A stretch of DNA of 64,000 nucleotides, from IMG/VR virus record IMGVR_UViG_3300010356_000998, positions 44,743 through 108,742 of that record, one strand, 5' to 3'. Position numbers and translations under genes: made by a program. Below, one piece after another: positions 404-45,978 of this stretch. The notes beneath the pieces were generated by a model, which saw only the letters and a program-made list of their open reading frames with translations, searched no databases and was not told where the DNA came from. Source of the DNA: a virus (taxonomy: Duplodnaviria > Caudoviricetes). Positions within the stretch are counted from its first letter, which is position 1, and every line of letters starts with the position of its first letter.

Positions 404-1360
404 TTACAATTCTTTAAAAAATGAGACAGCTCCGTCAAAATATACAGCTAATTCTTTTTGTCCAGTAGATTCTCTACCACCCATTATATTAAGAATTCGT
501 AAATTATTTTTATAATTATTTACATTAATCCCTTCATAAGTAGATAGTTTTGCCATTTCTGGACTAAATATACCAAAGCCAATATCAATATCTCTTTGAG
601 TATCTTTTGAATCTGCTAAACCATTAAAAGATGGTAATAAATCATTCATTTTTCTAGCTTCAAAAGATTCTTTTTCATTAGCTTGTTGCTGTACTATGAC
701 GGGATTGATTTTATATAAATTTCTTGCTTTAACAAATGTAGAAGCAGATGTTTCATCAATAGCTTGTTTTAATGTTTGTCCTCTTCTTGGAATAATTAAT
801 GATGCGTGATCTAAAATCAACATCGTTATTTTTTCAGAATTAGGATTTACTTTTTTACTTAATTCTACCGTAAAATTAGCTATTTCATCTACACTTCTAA
901 ATCTGTCATAATAGTTTACTCTTTCTAAATATTTTTCAAAAAATGGTTCATATTTTACAATAGCTTCGTATACTTCGGGTTCTAAAGATTTTTTAGTTGA
1001 TCTAATATCTTCAGGAGATACTCTAATCATACCTTTAGAATCAATAAATAGGAAGTGACACATTGCTTGAATCATTTTTTGCTGACTGGTCATTTCTAAA
1101 GATAAATAATGAACTTCAACATCTAAATCTGATTCTGTATCCATACAAAACTTAACAGGATTGTATACATACATGAAATCAGTAAATTGAGATTTACCTC
1201 TTTTTGGAGATGCTGATACCATTTCATATTTACCTTTTTCAATACCTGTGTAATATTGTTCTAATTTTGGAAAAGGACACGGAATAGCATTAAATTTACC
1301 AGACTCTCTTCTAAGTTTTCTTCTTTCAATATTTTTTAATGTTTCTTTAAATAAACTCAC
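404..1360 (-). CDS. DnaB-like replicative helicase (SF4, RecA fold)
   Basis: Walker A-like ASPKRGKS, SLEM motif, Walker B ILDH, GLADSKDTQRDID motif; located in the replication block. Confidence 0.8.
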   Translation of the reverse strand: MSLFKETLKNIERRKLRRESGKFNAIPCPFPKLEQYYTGIEKGKYEMVSASPKRGKSQFTDFMYVYNPVKFCMDTESDLDVEVHYLSLEMTSQQKMIQAMCHFLFIDSKGMIRVSPEDIRSTKKSLEPEVYEAIVKYEPFFEKYLERVNYYDRFRSVDEIANFTVELSKKVNPNSEKITMLILDHASLIIPRRGQTLKQAIDETSASTFVKARNLYKINPVIVQQQANEKESFEARKMNDLLPSFNGLADSKDTQRDIDIGFGIFSPEMAKLSTYEGINVNNYKNNLRILNIMGGRESTGQKELAVYFDGAVSFFKEL

Positions 1361-4659: not shown

Positions 4660-4735
4660 CATATTTGTCTCATATTTCTATGAGTATGGACTATATCATA
4701 TTCCTTAATAAAGGAACTCGGACGCTGATACGGTA

Positions 4736-5566
4736 TTACTCATCACGCTTGATGAACCCGTTAGTCTCTGCACCTTCACTACAAGATCGTGTAGTGCTTG
4801 GCTCAATGTTAGCATGATTATTTGCTATTTCTCTGCATAGTTGTAAAAAGTCACTATTAGTCATATTGTTTTTCATTGTATTAACTCTTTTTGTGACCCA
4901 CTGGACATTATCTTTAACATACCCTTTATCGGAATTTATTCTATCTAAAGAACACGTGTGCTTTACTCTATCTTCTTTATTATTAAATTTTGTATTCATT
5001 AATAATTCTCTTTGTGTATAAGCACATTTACCATTTTGATTATTCCACAATTCTTCCAAATATTCTGGTGTAAGATCAAATTCAAAACCTCTTAATTTAG
5101 CGTTTCTCTCAATAACTTTAAAATAAGTTAATGAAAGATTATTAGTTAACATTGTATTTCTTTTAGGTTTTTTTAAATTAGTATTAAAACAGTTATTACA
5201 ATAAGAAAGTCCTTCCCCTTTACATTTTCTAGTTAATGTGGTATGACCTGTTCTGTAAATATGGCCACAATCACATTGTACTTTATAAATAGTATTTCCT
5301 TTTTGAAGACCTTCACATTTCAATACTGTTAAATTTTGTACTTTGAATCCGTCAAAATAAGTTTTTTTGTCTTTCCATCGCAATTTTCCAGAACACGAAC
5401 GACATGATTTTGAAAACCCGTTTCGATTAATATAATGTTTTCCAAAAATATATTCTTTATCACAAGTACATTTTAATACAAAATGATCTCTACCATTTTC
5501 TTTAAATGGTTCTGATACAACTGTCCAGTTGTTTACTTTACTTCCAATTTCTAAATTTCTTTGCAT
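4736..5566 (-). CDS. intron-encoded HNH homing endonuclease
   Basis: CAY...SLDRINSDKGYVKDNVQWVTKRVNTMK HNH-type motif; two N-terminal Cys-rich repeats; C-terminus runs through the Q and R elements of the intron. Confidence 0.88.
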   Translation of the reverse strand: MQRNLEIGSKVNNWTVVSEPFKENGRDHFVLKCTCDKEYIFGKHYINRNGFSKSCRSCSGKLRWKDKKTYFDGFKVQNLTVLKCEGLQKGNTIYKVQCDCGHIYRTGHTTLTRKCKGEGLSYCNNCFNTNLKKPKRNTMLTNNLSLTYFKVIERNAKLRGFEFDLTPEYLEELWNNQNGKCAYTQRELLMNTKFNNKEDRVKHTCSLDRINSDKGYVKDNVQWVTKRVNTMKNNMTNSDFLQLCREIANNHANIEPSTTRSCSEGAETNGFIKRDE

Positions 5567-5587
5567 ATTTTATGTATTTTTATTACA

Positions 5588-5595
5588 CAAAGATA
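5588..5595 (-). promoter_or_regulatory. Bacteroidota -7 promoter element (TAnnTTTG) inside intron 2
   Basis: TATCTTTG about 21 nt upstream of the HNH start codon. Confidence 0.55.
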
Positions 5596-5698
5596 ATTAA
5601 AAATTGATTACTTCAACAGATAACTTACATTTAATTTTAGCCTTCTTTGAATTCATCCGATTTTCGATACACATTACTGTGTAAAGGCACAAGTTTTT

Positions 5699-6665
5699 AT
5701 GCTGTGAGTAGTATATTTTTGAATAATAGATTGAATAAATACTCTATTTTGCCAGTTAATATCATTAGCTATTGAACCATACCAAGGAGACATTTTAAAA
5801 CGTGCTTCTAATTCAGACTTTGGCATCATTTCTATAGAATACGATAATGGATCTGGAGCAGTTTTATTAATTTGAATTTGAAGCCAATCTTTAAATTTAG
5901 GATGAAGTACAGGATATTCCATCCAGTTATCTCCATTTTGATCTGTAAAATCTACTCTAACACCTGTTTCACCCGGATTAACTTTTTTACGACGCATGTA
6001 ATATGGTGCAAATAAAGGTTCTAATCCAGAAGTTGTTTGTGTTAAAATACTTACAGAACCAGTTGGAGCTACTGTAGACCATGATACATTACGACGTCCC
6101 CATTTTATCATTTTTAAAACTTTAAAATAAAAGTTTTCTACTAAAAATTGATAAAATTCATTACGTCCACTAATAATATCACCATCTATTTTAAATTCAC
6201 TTTCAGCATCCCAATCTTTAAATGAACCCCTTAATATAGATAAATCAATACTACAATCTAGTTCTCCTGACATTTTAGTTTGCATCACTCTTTCAATAGT
6301 TTCCATAGCTTCTTTAGAATCATATTTTAATCCTAAAGCTGCTAACATATCACCTAAAGCAGTGAAACCACTACCCGTTCTTCTAGAACTTTCAGCAATA
6401 TATCTTATATTTTGCCAAAGTTCTAATTCAGTACGTTTAACTGAATCATTTTCAGGATCTTGATTGATTTTATCGATAATTCTATCAATGTGTTCTAATT
6501 CAAGATCAATTAAATTATCAGCTAATCGTTGTTGTTCATACGCCATTTTATAAAGACTTTCGTAATCTATTTGAGCATCTTTAGTAAATGGGTTCTTTAC
6601 AAAGGAATAAAAATTAAGTGCTAATAAACGACAAGCATCATAAGCACTCATGAAAATTTCTCCAC
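5699..6665 (-). CDS. nrdJ: class II ribonucleotide reductase, exon 2
   Basis: (C)GEIFMSAYDACRL, RRTGSG, RRNVSWSTVAPTGSVS, TSGLEP motifs. Confidence 0.92.
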
Positions 6666-6673
6666 CTTTTTAT

Positions 6674-7405
6674 CTACACTTTATTAATCATGTTTTTAAA
6701 TTCATTATAATAATCTTTTTCTGTCCACAATTCATTCTTTTTAATTTTTTTAATGTTAGTACCATTATAATAAAAAATACCTTCTTGTGCAGGATACGAA
6801 CAAATACACCTTATTGAAGAATTGTTAATACGACTTTTAAATTCTTCAACTGTAATTAATTTAGGAAAGGTATCAATTGCAGTTTTTCCATAGTAATTAT
6901 TCAAAAAACAATGATTAACATTTACTTTTTCAATATCTAACATTAAATTATGACAAAATAAAAATACTTGTAAAGAATCTTCGTTTTTAAATAAATCTTT
7001 TTCTATTAATTCTAAAAATAAATTGTATACATCAAAATATGAATCATCAGAGTTATCATTAGTATGTTTAGGACTTACAAAATAACCTTCATAAGCAAAT
7101 CTAATAAACATACCTAATAAAGTTAATTCAATAATTTTTGAATCGTTTTTTACATGTACTTCTATTCTTTCACAATCTTTATTATCAATAATTTCAGTTA
7201 TACAATCTATGAAATTAGATTTAATAATATTTAAATATTTCATAAATTTATCATAATTTTCTATTTTAACATATTCTATTATAATTGCTACAGGATCTGC
7301 AGAAGGAACAGTATAATCATGAGCAAACGAATGAAAACAAGCTTCGTTGGTATGTGTGTTAATTTCGCCTTTTACTTTTTTAATAAAACTTGAATTGTAT
7401 GACAT
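6674..7405 (-). CDS. intron-encoded hypothetical protein in the P9 loop, no endonuclease motif seen
   Basis: 243 aa from ATG 7405 (alternative start 7456 overlaps the S element); no HNH, GIY-YIG or LAGLIDADG motif recognised. Confidence 0.75.
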   Translation of the reverse strand: MSYNSSFIKKVKGEINTHTNEACFHSFAHDYTVPSADPVAIIIEYVKIENYDKFMKYLNIIKSNFIDCITEIIDNKDCERIEVHVKNDSKIIELTLLGMFIRFAYEGYFVSPKHTNDNSDDSYFDVYNLFLELIEKDLFKNEDSLQVFLFCHNLMLDIEKVNVNHCFLNNYYGKTAIDTFPKLITVEEFKSRINNSSIRCICSYPAQEGIFYYNGTNIKKIKKNELWTEKDYYNEFKNMINKV

Positions 7406-7442
7406 AATAACATGATTTGAGTTATTTGTAGTTTGGACTGTA

Positions 7443-7811
7443 TCATAAACTTGCATTAAGTTTTTCCTTGTCAGTCTCTCGCGGCTTATTGATTAAATTG
7501 TCTATGATTTCTTTTAAGATAGCTTTTTCGTCAATGTTAAAGCTATTAGTTAATGTAAGTATTCTATTTAGTTTATTTAACAATTTATATTCAATCTGTC
7601 CGACGGGATTGACCTCTCCAGGTGTTTCCCCGTTAGCCTTATTCAGACCCTCAATTTTTTGAGATTCGGAATTTTTGTTAAATGGATTATCTTGATATAC
7701 AATATTTTCAAGTTTCGTAAGTCTATCATAAAGTTCTTGTATTTGTTTTTGAAAGAGTTTTTCATTTCTGTCAATTCTTTCAAATTGTTTAATATTAAAT
7801 TGTTGACTCAT
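7443..7811 (-). CDS. ORF overprinting the intron 1 catalytic core (helical/coiled-coil-like)
   Basis: 122 aa open frame spanning the P, Q and R elements and ending in S; coding status unproven. Confidence 0.5.
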   Translation of the reverse strand: MSQQFNIKQFERIDRNEKLFQKQIQELYDRLTKLENIVYQDNPFNKNSESQKIEGLNKANGETPGEVNPVGQIEYKLLNKLNRILTLTNSFNIDEKAILKEIIDNLINKPRETDKEKLNASL

Positions 7812-7864
7812 AATCTATTTAACTTTCCATAAGTATCACTACTTACAGCCGCATGGTATGTTTT

Positions 7865-8744
7865 ACGGATTTGTGGTTACCCCTTTGTATTTTGGATAAA
7901 CTGTATCAGGAGAATAATCCCAGTGTCTATCTACAAATAATATTCCGGGTTCTGCTGTACTATGTGCAGCTTCTATCATCTTATCCCAAAGTTCTCGTGC
8001 TTTTATTTCTTTAGTAATAGATGGATTATCTGAATCGCAAGGCCATCTCAATGTATAATTTGTATTTTGTTTAACAGCTTGCATAAAGTCATCTCTTACC
8101 ATTACTGAAATATTAGCTCCAGTTACTTTAGTTAGATCTTTTTTAATAGTTATAAAATGTTCAACATCAGGATGTCGAACGTCTATGCTTAACATTAAAG
8201 CACCTCTACGGCCATTTTGTGCTACTTCTCTTGTACTATTAGAAAATCTCTCCATAAAACTAACTGCTCCTGTAGAAGTACCAGCAGCATTAGTTACAGG
8301 TGTATTATTTGGTCTCAATGTAGAAATATCAAGACCTACACCACCTCTTCTTTTCATTAACTGAACTAATTGCTCGTCTTTTTGAAGAATACCTCCATAA
8401 GAATCTTCAGGTTGCCCTACCACAAAACAGTTACTTAAAGATCCTATTTTTTTAGAACCTAGCATTGACATTATAGATCCTTGTGGTACAACATACTTAA
8501 AGTGTTTAAACAAATCATAAATACGTTCTTCTGAAAGATATTCTCTTTCTTGTCCATATTTACTTAATTCTGTTCTGTTTTCGGAGTTTTCTTCTTTTTC
8601 TTTGTAATTAGATTCAATTCTAGCAAATTCTTTTGCCATTCTTTTGTGCATGTCATCGGGAGTCGTTTCTCCTTCTTGAGCATACTTTCCTTGCCATACT
8701 GACATGGCTAATTCATCTTGATTAAAGTAATTGGATAATGACAT
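7865..8744 (-). CDS. nrdJ: class II ribonucleotide reductase, exon 1
   Basis: SLSNCFV, RRGGVG, QNGRRGALM, ANISV, EPGILF, TTNP; exons total 880+967+658=2505 nt (834 aa plus stop). Confidence 0.92.
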
Positions 8745-13015: not shown

Positions 13016-13058
13016 GTGTGAAAAAGTTGAAATTGTTAAGAGTTATATGGACTGTATT

Positions 13059-43410: not shown

Positions 43411-45978
43411 ATGGGAAAATACGATAAATATAAAAAAATAATATTATCTGCTAATCTGATAAAAACTATGATAACTACTTCAATACCGGGTAGTTATGGC
43501 CAGCTTACTACAGCTGGGCCTGGTAATGAAGGTGTTGATTTAGCAGAATGGATTAATGAAAAAATAGATGAAGGTGTTATTATTTCGCCATCTACCCCAT
43601 CAGCAACTAACTTGTCTTTTATAAGAGATTCTACTTCAGTAACTGTTCAATCTGATACAGGGACTGATGCTGTTCTTCCTATAGCAACTCCTACACTTGC
43701 TGGTGTAATGTCAGCATCTGATAAAACAAATCTTAGTAGTTTAATTGTATTAAGTGGTGTTCCGGCAGGATCGTCTCATTTGAATACATTTACCGGAACT
43801 ATAATTCCTGATAATTCTTCTATCAAAGAGGCTCTACAAGCTTTAGAAACAGAACTTGAAAACGCATCTGATGGAAATGGTATTTATTCAGGATCAGGGA
43901 CAATTCCTACCACAACCGTAGCTACAGTTACTGATAGATTTAGTATTGACATACCTGTTACAAGTGGCATATTTGAAGTAGGTGATTATAATAATGTTGT
44001 TACAAACGGCAATCATTTTATAAGACTTCAAACAGATTATGGCATAGAGATGGGAAGATCTGCTGGATTTTTCCCTAGATTTGAAATGAATCCTTTTAAA
44101 ACTGAATTTTACGGACCTGCTGAATTTGGATTTGATGTTTTTCATTTTAATCTTACTCAACCGGGTTATTTAAATACAGAAAAAATTAAATTTAATATTG
44201 GTAGTTCTAATGGAAATTTCCAAGGTTTAGTTTATTCAAATGATTTTTCTGCAAATTTCGTAGCTAACTCTTTAATAACTAAACAATATTTAGAAGATCA
44301 ACTAACAGCTCTTCCACATAATGACCTAACAGGTTTACAAGGAGGTATTGCTGGAGAATATTATCATTTAACTAAAGCACAACATGATACTCTTTTCTTA
44401 ACAGCTCCACCTAATTCATTAGTAGGATCAGATAATGGAGGTAGTATCAAAGCTTTAGGAGTAGCTGGTTCTATAACATTTTCAGGAACTAATATTCAAT
44501 TAGTAAATGATAATGTATCTCCCGGTAATAATAAATATTATGGTACTGATGCTAGTGGTGTAAAAGGATTTCATGATATTACTTTATTAGGGGTATCTTC
44601 AGTTTCTGTTACAGATTCTTCCGATATTGATTTTACAGTAACCAATCCTACAACTACACCGAATATTACAGGAGTATTAACTTCAACAGGAGTTATTGCA
44701 GGTAGTTATGGTAGTAGTTCAGCAGTTCCTATATATACAGTTGATTCAAAAGGTAGATTAACTTCAGCTGGAAATACAAGTATTTCTATATCAAGTTCTT
44801 CAGTTGTTGATTTTAATGAATCTGTTGACGATCGTGTTAATACTTTATTAGTTGCTGGAACAGGTATTACTTTAAATTATGATGATACAGCTAATACATT
44901 AACTATAGCAAGTTCTGGTACAGTTAGTGGAACAGGTACTGCTAATTATGTAGCATATTGGAATAGTTCTTCTAGTTTAACTGGAGATATTGATTTTCAA
45001 TTTGATGGTACTTATTTAACCTTAGGAACTCCTACACCAGCTTCTTTAAGTAGATTTACTACAAAAGGAACTGGTTCTACAGTTTCTACATTTGGTTGGA
45101 CTCATCAAAATTTAGCTGGAAATAATGTTTTTCAAGTAGCTGATAACGGCGCTGTAACAATAGGAGCTTTAGGAGATGTATATATACATCCTGATCAGAT
45201 GAATATATCTGCTGGAGGTACGTATGTTATTTCTAAATCTGGTGGTGATTTAGGTCTTTATTCAGATACTACTGTAGTTGTTGAAGGTGGTGGGATTGCA
45301 ACAACAACCCCGTCATTTAAATCTGTAGCTACGAGATCTAGTAATATAGGAACTTTAATTAACGCACAGATTCAGGGAACTTTTAATATGGTAGCTGGAT
45401 CTAACCGTTACTCAGATCTTTATATTGACACACAAGTAAATCAGTCTGGTGGTACGTCTCCAATTAGATCTATTTACATTAATCCAACTCTTACTGCAGC
45501 TACTAATTATGCAGGTATAGAGATAAATGCTCCTGGACATCATGCATTGAGAACAACAGCCGGTAAGGTTAGATTTGATCTTGGGTCTGATGCTGTAGGG
45601 GATATTTACTATAGAGATGCTAATGGTGATTTAGCAAGGTTACCTATTGGTGGGCCCACTGAAGTATTAGGTTCTGATGGCACAATACCGGCATGGACCA
45701 CTACCGCTGGTTCATTACCGGGAGGTACTGCCGGCTCTTTCTTACTTTACTCAGGCGGATCTTGGGTATCAGGAACTTACCTTAGAGAAATACAAACAGG
45801 CATGACAGGAACTAATGTTACTCTAGCTAGTACTCCATTAGTAGATACTCCTGTACAAATTTATAAAAATGGTTTATTACAAAACGTTGGTGATGATTAT
45901 ACTATAGTAGGTACTACACTTACTATGGTTATCGCACTTGTAACTACAGATAAGATAACCGCAATTTATTATATTTAA
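43411..45978 (+). CDS. tail or head fibre protein
   Basis: 855 aa Ser/Thr/Gly-rich; AGVMSASDK, HNDLTGLQGG, VDSKGRLT fibre motifs. Confidence 0.7.
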   Translation: MGKYDKYKKIILSANLIKTMITTSIPGSYGQLTTAGPGNEGVDLAEWINEKIDEGVIISPSTPSATNLSFIRDSTSVTVQSDTGTDAVLPIATPTLAGVMSASDKTNLSSLIVLSGVPAGSSHLNTFTGTIIPDNSSIKEALQALETELENASDGNGIYSGSGTIPTTTVATVTDRFSIDIPVTSGIFEVGDYNNVVTNGNHFIRLQTDYGIEMGRSAGFFPRFEMNPFKTEFYGPAEFGFDVFHFNLTQPGYLNTEKIKFNIGSSNGNFQGLVYSNDFSANFVANSLITKQYLEDQLTALPHNDLTGLQGGIAGEYYHLTKAQHDTLFLTAPPNSLVGSDNGGSIKALGVAGSITFSGTNIQLVNDNVSPGNNKYYGTDASGVKGFHDITLLGVSSVSVTDSSDIDFTVTNPTTTPNITGVLTSTGVIAGSYGSSSAVPIYTVDSKGRLTSAGNTSISISSSSVVDFNESVDDRVNTLLVAGTGITLNYDDTANTLTIASSGTVSGTGTANYVAYWNSSSSLTGDIDFQFDGTYLTLGTPTPASLSRFTTKGTGSTVSTFGWTHQNLAGNNVFQVADNGAVTIGALGDVYIHPDQMNISAGGTYVISKSGGDLGLYSDTTVVVEGGGIATTTPSFKSVATRSSNIGTLINAQIQGTFNMVAGSNRYSDLYIDTQVNQSGGTSPIRSIYINPTLTAATNYAGIEINAPGHHALRTTAGKVRFDLGSDAVGDIYYRDANGDLARLPIGGPTEVLGSDGTIPAWTTTAGSLPGGTAGSFLLYSGGSWVSGTYLREIQTGMTGTNVTLASTPLVDTPVQIYKNGLLQNVGDDYTIVGTTLTMVIALVTTDKITAIYYI

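Follow-up and report, generated by a model that had tools for sequence, protein, structure and literature searches.

An RNR gene interrupted at its catalytic cysteine codon

The 64,000-nucleotide (nt) stretch of viral DNA analysed here (positions 44,743 to 108,742 of IMG/VR record IMGVR_UViG_3300010356_000998, Duplodnaviria; Caudoviricetes; hereafter the window) carries on its minus strand a B12-type (class II-like), nrdJ-like ribonucleotide reductase (RNR) gene that is present in three pieces. The first two pieces are separated by an intron of group I type (intron 1; 25% G+C), and within it a 122-codon open reading frame (ORF), ORF122, reads through paired regions P3 to P8, essentially the whole catalytic core (Table 1).

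The limits of intron 1 were drawn from both exons. Alignment of exon 1 to T. maritima NrdJ, the best solved relative, extends up to TNP, and the exon 1 frame is closed by a UAA (7865-7863) that spans the 5' splice site; the standard code was assumed for the window, as no suppressor tRNA was found in it. Left unspliced, the open frame of the second piece starts K-G-G-E-I-F-M-S-A-Y-D-A-C, and joining U7865 to GU6665-6664 brings back the catalytic Cys codon to give TNP-C-GEI. Because most of 67 related viral loci have exactly one codon (3 nt) between the two exon matches, the intervening sequence was taken to be 7864..6666.

Table 1. Positions in the window of the RNR gene pieces, the structural elements of intron 1 and the frames it carries.
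Feature	Positions	Strand	Description
RNR exon 1	7865..8744	-	Pfam Ribonuc_red_lgC, 1.6e-37; ends ...GVTTNP plus the U of the Cys codon
Intron 1, group I type	7864..6666	-	1199 nt; preceded by U7865; last base G6666 is omega-G
P1	7849..7868	-	CCGUA 7868-7864 with UGCGG 7853-7849; wobble U7865-G7852 at the splice site
P2 hairpin	7829..7846	-	7 bp, GUGA (GNRA) tetraloop; covarying stem with GUGA or GUAA loop in all relatives
P2.1 domain	7677..7823	-	GUUAAAU 7823-7817 with AUUUAAC 7683-7677; loop about 135 nt
Candidate P3 5' strand	7668..7671	-	UUCC inside conserved UUCCGAAUC; partner GGAA 7467-7464
Hairpins X and Y	7636..7664	-	X, UCUCAA/UUGAGG 7664-7649; Y, GUCU/AGGC 7648-7636; between P3 5' strand and P4
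P4 and P5	7603..7633	-	ACGGG/CCCGU; ACCU/AGGU with loop GGAG; classical P and Q elements
P6 and P6a	7482..7602	-	CGG/CCG; AUUGA/UCAAU; 98-nt P6a loop
P7, P3 3' strand, P8, J8/7	7436..7476	-	Classical R and S elements
Candidate P9 hairpin	7406..7426	-	AAUAAC/GUUAUU; prediction only
P10, 3' exon strand	6662..6665	-	GUGG with guide CCAU 7856-7853
ORF122	7811..7443	-	122 aa, ATG start, from the ORF listing; ATG 53 nt into the intron
Second intron ORF	6674..7456	-	Longest form 260 aa, AUG 7456 in the P8 loop; alternative AUG 7405, 243 aa
RNR exon 2	5699..6665	-	Begins GU GGA GAA (C-G-E)
Intron 2, HNH-bearing	5698..4660	-	Same RNR gene; tail of HNH ORF at 4736-4790 ends ...SCSEGAETNGFIKRDE*

Comparative evidence for an atypical group I core

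Homologous introns were gathered by searches with RNR exon 1 and with P0005, the intron ORF of locus L066. One of them, L065b, shares the insertion site of intron 1 between TNP and CGE; those of L066, L057 and L065a lie at a second RNR site, between NGRR and GALM, and that of L188 lies in a DnaB-like helicase gene. In three insertion contexts the guide pairs with both exons and changes alongside them. The P1 pairing is CCGU/GCGG in the window, GCCGU/GCGGC in L066 and L057 and GGCGU/GCGCC in L065a, and the equivalents of P10 are CUAC/GUGG in L065b and CUCU/GGAG in L066 and L057.

The core helices P6a, P7 and P8 and the candidate P3, together with two added hairpins, X and Y, pair in every one of 5-6 family members, with compensatory changes present. 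P7 is formed by GACUG (7476-7472) and CAGUC (7440-7436) in the window and by GACUA/UAGUC in L065a and L188; P8 is AAACUU/AAGUUU (7463-7447) in the window, AACCU/AGGUU in L065b and CACCCU/AGGGUG in L057; and P6a grows from 5 bp in the window to 8 bp in L057 and 10 bp in L066 in sequences that are unrelated. Joining region J8/7 (7446-7441) makes up the 5' part of the classical S element. Both the P4-P5-P4' block and the J8/7-P7' block can be aligned with the proven T4 td intron. The 446-nt 5' part of the intron folds, with a z-score of -3.5, into a predicted structure that contains P2, P2.1, X, Y, P4-P5, P6a, P8 and P7; the P2.1 domain has a folding z-score of -2.1, and L066 and L057 carry GUUGACA/UGUCAAC at that place. 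This comparative evidence identifies intron 1 as a genuine but atypical group I intron with expanded peripheral loops.

The atypical features centre on P3, which a preliminary description, made from the sequence alone, had found hard to see while suspecting an unusual core; both impressions held. The best candidate is a 4-bp pairing, UUCC/GGAA, with the compensated variant CUCU/GGAG in L066, L057 and L188, and the near-identical R elements of L065a and L188 differ by exactly the compensated P3 pair. Unlike the textbook layout, the 5' strand of P3 is set apart from P4 by X and Y. Hairpin X is a 10-bp long-range stem in L066 and L057, Y is an 11-bp stem that closes a 236-codon ORF in L065b, and all variants of the two pair fully and covary. 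A literature search on helices between P3 and P4 found nothing relevant. A CGGA following the Q element, the partner of UUCCG in the minimum-free-energy fold, was rejected, as L065a and L065b keep UUCCGAAUC yet do not have CGGA. The P7.1 and P7.2 inserts, present in T4 td and in intron 2 of the window, are absent from intron 1, in which only ACAA separates GACUG of P7 from GGAA of P3' (7476-7464). Intron 1 can, therefore, be placed by its predicted structure outside subgroup IA2, the td type.

The Rfam group I model RF00028 did not match intron 1, whether at the gathering score or, in searches of 6.5 kb and of 491 nt, at E ≤ 10, and neither the gathering score nor a relaxed mode gave a group I match for this intron subfamily in the window and 30 related loci. 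As controls, the proven T4 introns td and nrdB scored 40.3 and 35.7 bits, both under the gathering score of 50, and an ORF-less intron at the insertion site of L066 (L055) was matched at 31.9 bits (E = 1.7e-4). RF00028 is thus a weak detector for these phage introns, and since T4 td itself falls under the gathering score, silence of the model was counted as weak negative evidence. The P4-P5-P4' pattern CTAACGGGGNAA...AATCCCGT occurs in more than 116 IMG/VR contigs (loci L069-L184), and 0 of the 16 such loci tested reached the gathering score; the Rfam group I model seems to overlook a large class of phage introns. No usable match emerged when the intron and its P-Q block were compared by blastn with 50,697 phage records.

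The missing Rfam match also bears on whether the RNR gene is spliced at all. The gene could instead be one 'in pieces', split by inserted genes as in nrdA of phage Aeh1, with the P, Q, R and S resemblance being incidental. The intervening sequence is almost wholly occupied by ORFs, and an in-frame AUG (MSAYDAC...) lies 5 codons into exon 2, 8 nt after AAGGUGGAG made by the C-G-E codons (6651-6672, minus strand), at which unspliced RNA could start a Cys-less exon 2 fragment, although the arrangement may be a coincidence. We consider such a gene very improbable. The catalytic Cys codon itself is split, which would leave separate pieces without that Cys; the U-G pair at the 5' site, the terminal G and P1 and P10 pairings that track the exons from site to site are diagnostic of group I introns; the core helices covary and resemble those of T4 td; and the ORF-less L055 intron at the L066 site is recognized by RF00028 itself.

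A 122-codon frame threaded through the core

The preliminary description had reported a 122-codon ATG frame that starts 53 nt into intron 1, runs through the P, Q and R elements and stops in S, and the ORF listing and the splice site after U7865 bear this out. The AUG of ORF122 and its first ~42 codons sit in the P2.1 loop, with a UAG two codons ahead of the AUG. From there the frame passes through the 3' strand of P2.1, the 5' strand of P3, X, Y, P4, P5, P4', P6/P6a and its loop, the 5' strand of P7, the 3' strand of P3 and P8, and ends at a UGA (7445-7443) in J8/7. It reads the 5' strand of P4 as ANGET, the 3' strand of P4 as NPVG and the J6/7-P7 region as PRETD. About 235 of its 369 nt overlap the core.

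That so long a frame would be unlikely by chance, as first suggested from the sequence, was substantiated by simulation. The three phases contain 0, 8 and 24 stops over the ORF122 stretch. None of 3000 random sequences of 1199 nt (first-order Markov, intron composition) contained an ATG ORF of at least 122 codons, and with the composition of ORF122 itself such an ORF arose in 0.17% of random sequences. Chance does not explain ORF122 (P about 0.002 or less). The 98-nt P6a loop has 7, 0 and 6 stops in its three phases. When scored for codon usage (log-odds, with 22 long window ORFs as the training set), ORF122 reached +0.33 per codon in frame versus -1.0 and -1.6 out of frame, near the 0.44 of the HNH gene in intron 2.

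Most of the remaining intron is taken up by a second ORF. In its longest form (260 aa) the first 17 codons cross the 3' strand of P8, J8/7, the 3' strand of P7 and P9. Its only homologue, P0008, starts opposite residue 18 (Met18), and no Pfam or PHROG family was found for it. Because P0008 begins there, the ORF probably starts at AUG 7405, just past the candidate P9, and its 14-nt overlap with ORF122 is probably an artefact of choosing the longest ORF. Whichever start is used, ORF122 and the second ORF together cover 93-95% of the intron, in line with the early estimate that about 90% is potentially coding.

The frame is kept open in related introns

Four of the homologous introns have a frame across the core in the phase of ORF122. 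That of L066 (172 aa) starts in the X loop and ends just after P7'; that of L057 (212 aa) starts in the X loop and ends in the P8 loop; that of L065a (138 aa) runs from the P5 loop to the P8 loop; and that of L188 (129 aa) starts in the P5 loop (L5) and stops at a UAG inside the 3' strand of P7 (P7'). In all four, Q is read as NPV and R as ET(D/N)KE. The core of L065b carries no frame across Q-S. The loops traversed by the frames are mostly non-homologous, and each of seven (7/7) has exactly one stop-free phase, the other phases containing 2-8 stops. The joint chance over six independent traversed loops is about 10^-11.6. Among the 116 occurrences of the P-Q pattern, an ATG ORF of at least 100 codons across Q was present in five, two of which (L072 and L150) are GIY-YIG genes starting in loop L5.

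Three proteins in public collections share the start of ORF122. P0002 (156 aa) and P0003 (155 aa) are 90% identical to ORF122 and diverge from it at the 5' strand of P8 into a 38-residue tail; P0004 (100 aa) is 59% identical over residues 3-58 and exits the core after hairpin X. When viral and metagenome contigs were scanned with the protein as guide, no ORF122 relative emerged. A degenerate DNA pattern for QFERIDRNE had one match, L186, which was rejected as a chance site in a GC-rich bacterial contig. To judge from the comparison of these loops and proteins, the frame is maintained across the family and is not accidental.

Protein-level constraint in relatives and the status of ORF122

Selection at the protein level was assessed in the relatives through the ratio of nonsynonymous to synonymous substitution rates (dN/dS). 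The Cys-rich tail encoded in the P8 loop (C-x-C...PHYGFK...CTDCNGIKDDAYW) lacks its own start codon, and the only way into it is through R. Between L066 and L188 its dN/dS is 0.33, with a synonymous excess (p = 0.013), and 0.76 and 1.43 in the shifted phases. Between L066 and L057, dN/dS is 0.52 for the one loop-encoded stretch of the core-spanning frame that could be aligned, its N-terminus, 0.18 for the downstream intron ORF and 0.11 for the RNR exon. The ratio for the N-terminus is not significant. In the relatives, the ratio for the P8-loop tail points to purifying selection on a loop-encoded downstream domain that is reached only via the core.

The amphipathic helices that had been proposed for the peripheral insertions gain weak support from an AlphaFold2 model of ORF122 (four sequences), which is itself weak (mean predicted local distance difference test, pLDDT, of 58). 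Helices are predicted at residues 3-40, 69-87 and 93-108, all of which are loop-encoded, and the core-encoded residues 41-71 and 111-122 have pLDDT <50. In such a protein, coding segments in separate loops would be joined by reading through the ribozyme strands, and the core-encoded residues would act as flexible linkers.

We lean, with modest confidence, towards ORF122 being a selected open frame, an extreme phage-borne case of 'core creep' that is threaded through the core from P3 to P8. Several results weigh against this. Besides the silence of RF00028, Pfam and PHROG contained no family for ORF122 or for the frames of its relatives, with no homing endonuclease among them, and the codon score of 0.33 lies ~2.7 standard deviations under that of ordinary phage genes (0.90 +/- 0.21). 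ORF122 is without the 38-residue P8-loop tail of P0002 and P0003, so that it could represent a shortened copy in decay. Across the wider family, conservation falls on residues dictated by the RNA core, and the N-terminal dN/dS of 0.52 between L066 and L057 rests on 13 changes and is indistinguishable from neutral. A TAnnTTTG-type promoter, a motif that is not enriched in the window, was not found on the minus strand at 7443-7900; with no promoter motif of its own ahead of it, ORF122 would be expressed from the nrdJ pre-mRNA.

An ORF122 that is open but functionless, as a relic or by passive read-through, would account for part of this pattern. A loop ORF may have lost its stop, or a longer gene may be decaying, with the frame rarely or never translated; the intermediate codon score, the low confidence of the model, the lack of a family, the lost tail, the N-terminal dN/dS, the concentration of family-wide conservation in RNA-dictated residues and the predicted pairing of the AUG in P2.1 would all fit. 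We nonetheless regard this explanation as rather unlikely, since in the 98-nt AT-rich loop no phase is open but the one joining Q to R, and the same holds for six independent loops in the relatives. In addition, the start codon is common to four proteins, and the downstream domain, which is reachable only via the core, is under purifying selection in relatives.

A possible coupling of translation and RNR splicing

Since similar frames stay open in related phage introns, the intron RNA probably acts as both enzyme and message. In the predicted full fold, the ORF122 AUG has a probability of being unpaired, P(unpaired), of 0.04-0.29, compared to 0.44-0.85 in the nascent 171 nt (thermodynamic prediction). 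When the 446-nt 5' part is folded by prediction, an extension of P2.1 pairs the AUG and the five bases ahead of it, with P(unpaired) of 0.00-0.29. Once the intron has folded, the AUG would be buried in P2.1 and splicing would be the default; translation would be limited to nascent or unfolded pre-mRNA, before the 3' strand of P2.1 exists. A ribosome on the ORF122 frame would melt P3-P8, and as it must unwind these helices, translation and splicing would be mutually exclusive on one molecule. By inference, ORF122 is a translated frame with a masked AUG, and its RNA can hold a ribosome or act as a ribozyme but not both at once; by analogy with I-TevI/td, it is plausible that translation gates RNR splicing.

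Translation itself, with a largely irrelevant peptide, could also be what the frame is for. A pioneer ribosome that loads at the AUG of the nascent RNA, ahead of synthesis of the P2.1 3' strand, would trail the polymerase and keep the core unfolded until all strands are made, and termination at J8/7 or P7' would time or chaperone ribozyme folding and hence RNR expression. Such a role would agree with openness being kept while the loop-encoded sequences are replaced wholesale (loops L6 and L8 differ between L066 and L057), with family frames that end near P7' (in the P8 loop, in J8/7, or inside or just after P7'), and with the prediction that nascent RNA alone leaves the AUG accessible. In td, splicing is known to benefit when the upstream exon is translated (PMC3073962). 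However, the constraint on the Cys-rich tail is at the protein level, which a pure 'track' would not need; L065b presumably splices without a frame across Q-S; and in the only tested case, I-TevI/td, ribosomes in the core harm splicing (PMC3073962). We judge this explanation improbable. There is a similarly slim chance that it extends to a phage intron family in which one set of nucleotides is ribozyme and messenger over the entire catalytic core and the frame is kept open for a ribosome that tracks the polymerase through the core and is released at J8/7-P7'. If true, ribozyme folding, and hence expression of RNR, helicase and other core genes, would depend on translation, and the intron would be a translate-then-splice timer rather than parasite cargo.

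Mobility of the intron and other features of the related loci

In the protein collection, the nearest RNR fragment of exon 1 size shares 69% identity with exon 1, versus 90% for the relatives of ORF122. Because of this difference, the intron has probably moved recently between diverged hosts or genes, and by the same identities intron and host gene have different histories. A search with the DNA polymerase, aimed at the taxonomy of the phage, gave a best match of 37% identity and did not place it. Many RNR fragments of about 310-330 aa are present in the protein collection, which suggests that the RNR site is split likewise in many genomes. At the identical Cys codon, two other loci carry a 957-nt insert (L004:6940-7896 and L038:6976-7932), a multiple of three without group I motifs that probably represents an intein. 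Mobile elements of different kinds appear to favour the catalytic Cys codon of this RNR as an insertion hot spot.

The family member in the helicase gene (L188:2140-3340) lies on a 103-kb viral contig, and the interrupted gene is a homologue of the window ORF at 404..1360. The intron at the second RNR site of L065 carries, after its core, a 254-aa glutamine amidotransferase / Peptidase_C26 gene (L065:7433-8194; Pfam 2e-20), and these introns therefore carry non-endonuclease cargo. The same viral contig, with its two-intron RNR gene, contains a tmRNA gene (L065:420-754; Rfam 68.8 bits, E = 2e-24). In the window, an S-like motif at 13058 (minus strand) proved not to be an intron.

Comparison with known systems

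Phage and bacterial introns whose ORFs overlap the core have been presented as a general class (Hausner et al. 2014, PMC3984707, Fig. 2b), and the phenomenon has been named 'core creep' (Edgell, Chalamcharla & Belfort 2011, PMC3073962), so the concept is already known; new here are its extent, over the whole catalytic core, and the phage setting. Also distinctive are the free-standing AUG, the lack of an endonuclease and the recurrence across a family where coding sequence can occupy almost any peripheral loop (P2.1, X, Y, L5, L6, L8 and P9). At least five diverged introns, inserted at three sites in two genes, share the arrangement. It offers a compact natural system for how one RNA meets the demands of a ribozyme fold and a protein code, in a setting of coupled transcription and translation where ribosomes in the core are known to block splicing, and in which one can ask whether translation times the splicing of an essential gene. 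Surveys by Rfam or by endonuclease domain miss these introns and report their host genes as fragments, because both signals are absent.

The closest comparison is T4 td with its ORF for I-TevI, also a phage group I intron in a nucleotide-metabolism gene with a stop codon at the 5' splice site; in most phage introns, a stop near the splice site closes the exon frame (PMC3073962). The P4-P5 and J8/7-P7 sequences of td are near-identical to those of intron 1, and in both introns the ORF begins in a peripheral loop and enters core helices. Masking of the start region by RNA structure has been shown for I-TevI and is predicted for ORF122. In contrast, the I-TevI ORF overlaps the core by ~20 nt at its 3' end, compared to ~235 of 369 nt and essentially all of P3-P8 for ORF122, and ribosome occupancy of only about 20 nt of the td core during I-TevI translation already leads to a splicing defect (PMC3073962). 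ORF122 belongs to no recognisable family, in contrast to the GIY-YIG homing endonuclease I-TevI, and unlike td, intron 1 is without P7.1/P7.2 and has two added hairpins between P3 and P4.

Ordinary partial overlaps are found closer by, in phage introns of the same broad class. The HNH ORF of intron 2 reads, in its last ~45 nt, R (GCAGAGACUAAC; AETN) and a P7.1/P7.2-like insert in the phase that ORF122 uses in its own R, and the GIY-YIG genes of L072 and L150 start in loop L5 and read Q. Unlike in ORF122, these HNH and GIY-YIG overlaps are limited to one end of a gene that otherwise lies in a single loop. Introns of fungal mitochondria have ORFs that are joined to the exon upstream and extend over core elements (PMC8393795); like ORF122, these ORFs are long frames over many such elements, with RNA and protein constraints on the same nucleotides. 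The mitochondrial ORFs continue the exon frame and specify LAGLIDADG or GIY-YIG proteins or maturases, whereas ORF122 has its own AUG, follows an exon closed by UAA and belongs to a phage with a bacterial host. The crAss-like phages of Bacteroidota likewise have dense group I introns and inteins in core genes (Yutin et al. 2021, PMC7886860). The introns in that study were found via endonuclease domains, and non-endonuclease ORFs threaded through the core, such as ORF122, are not described there.

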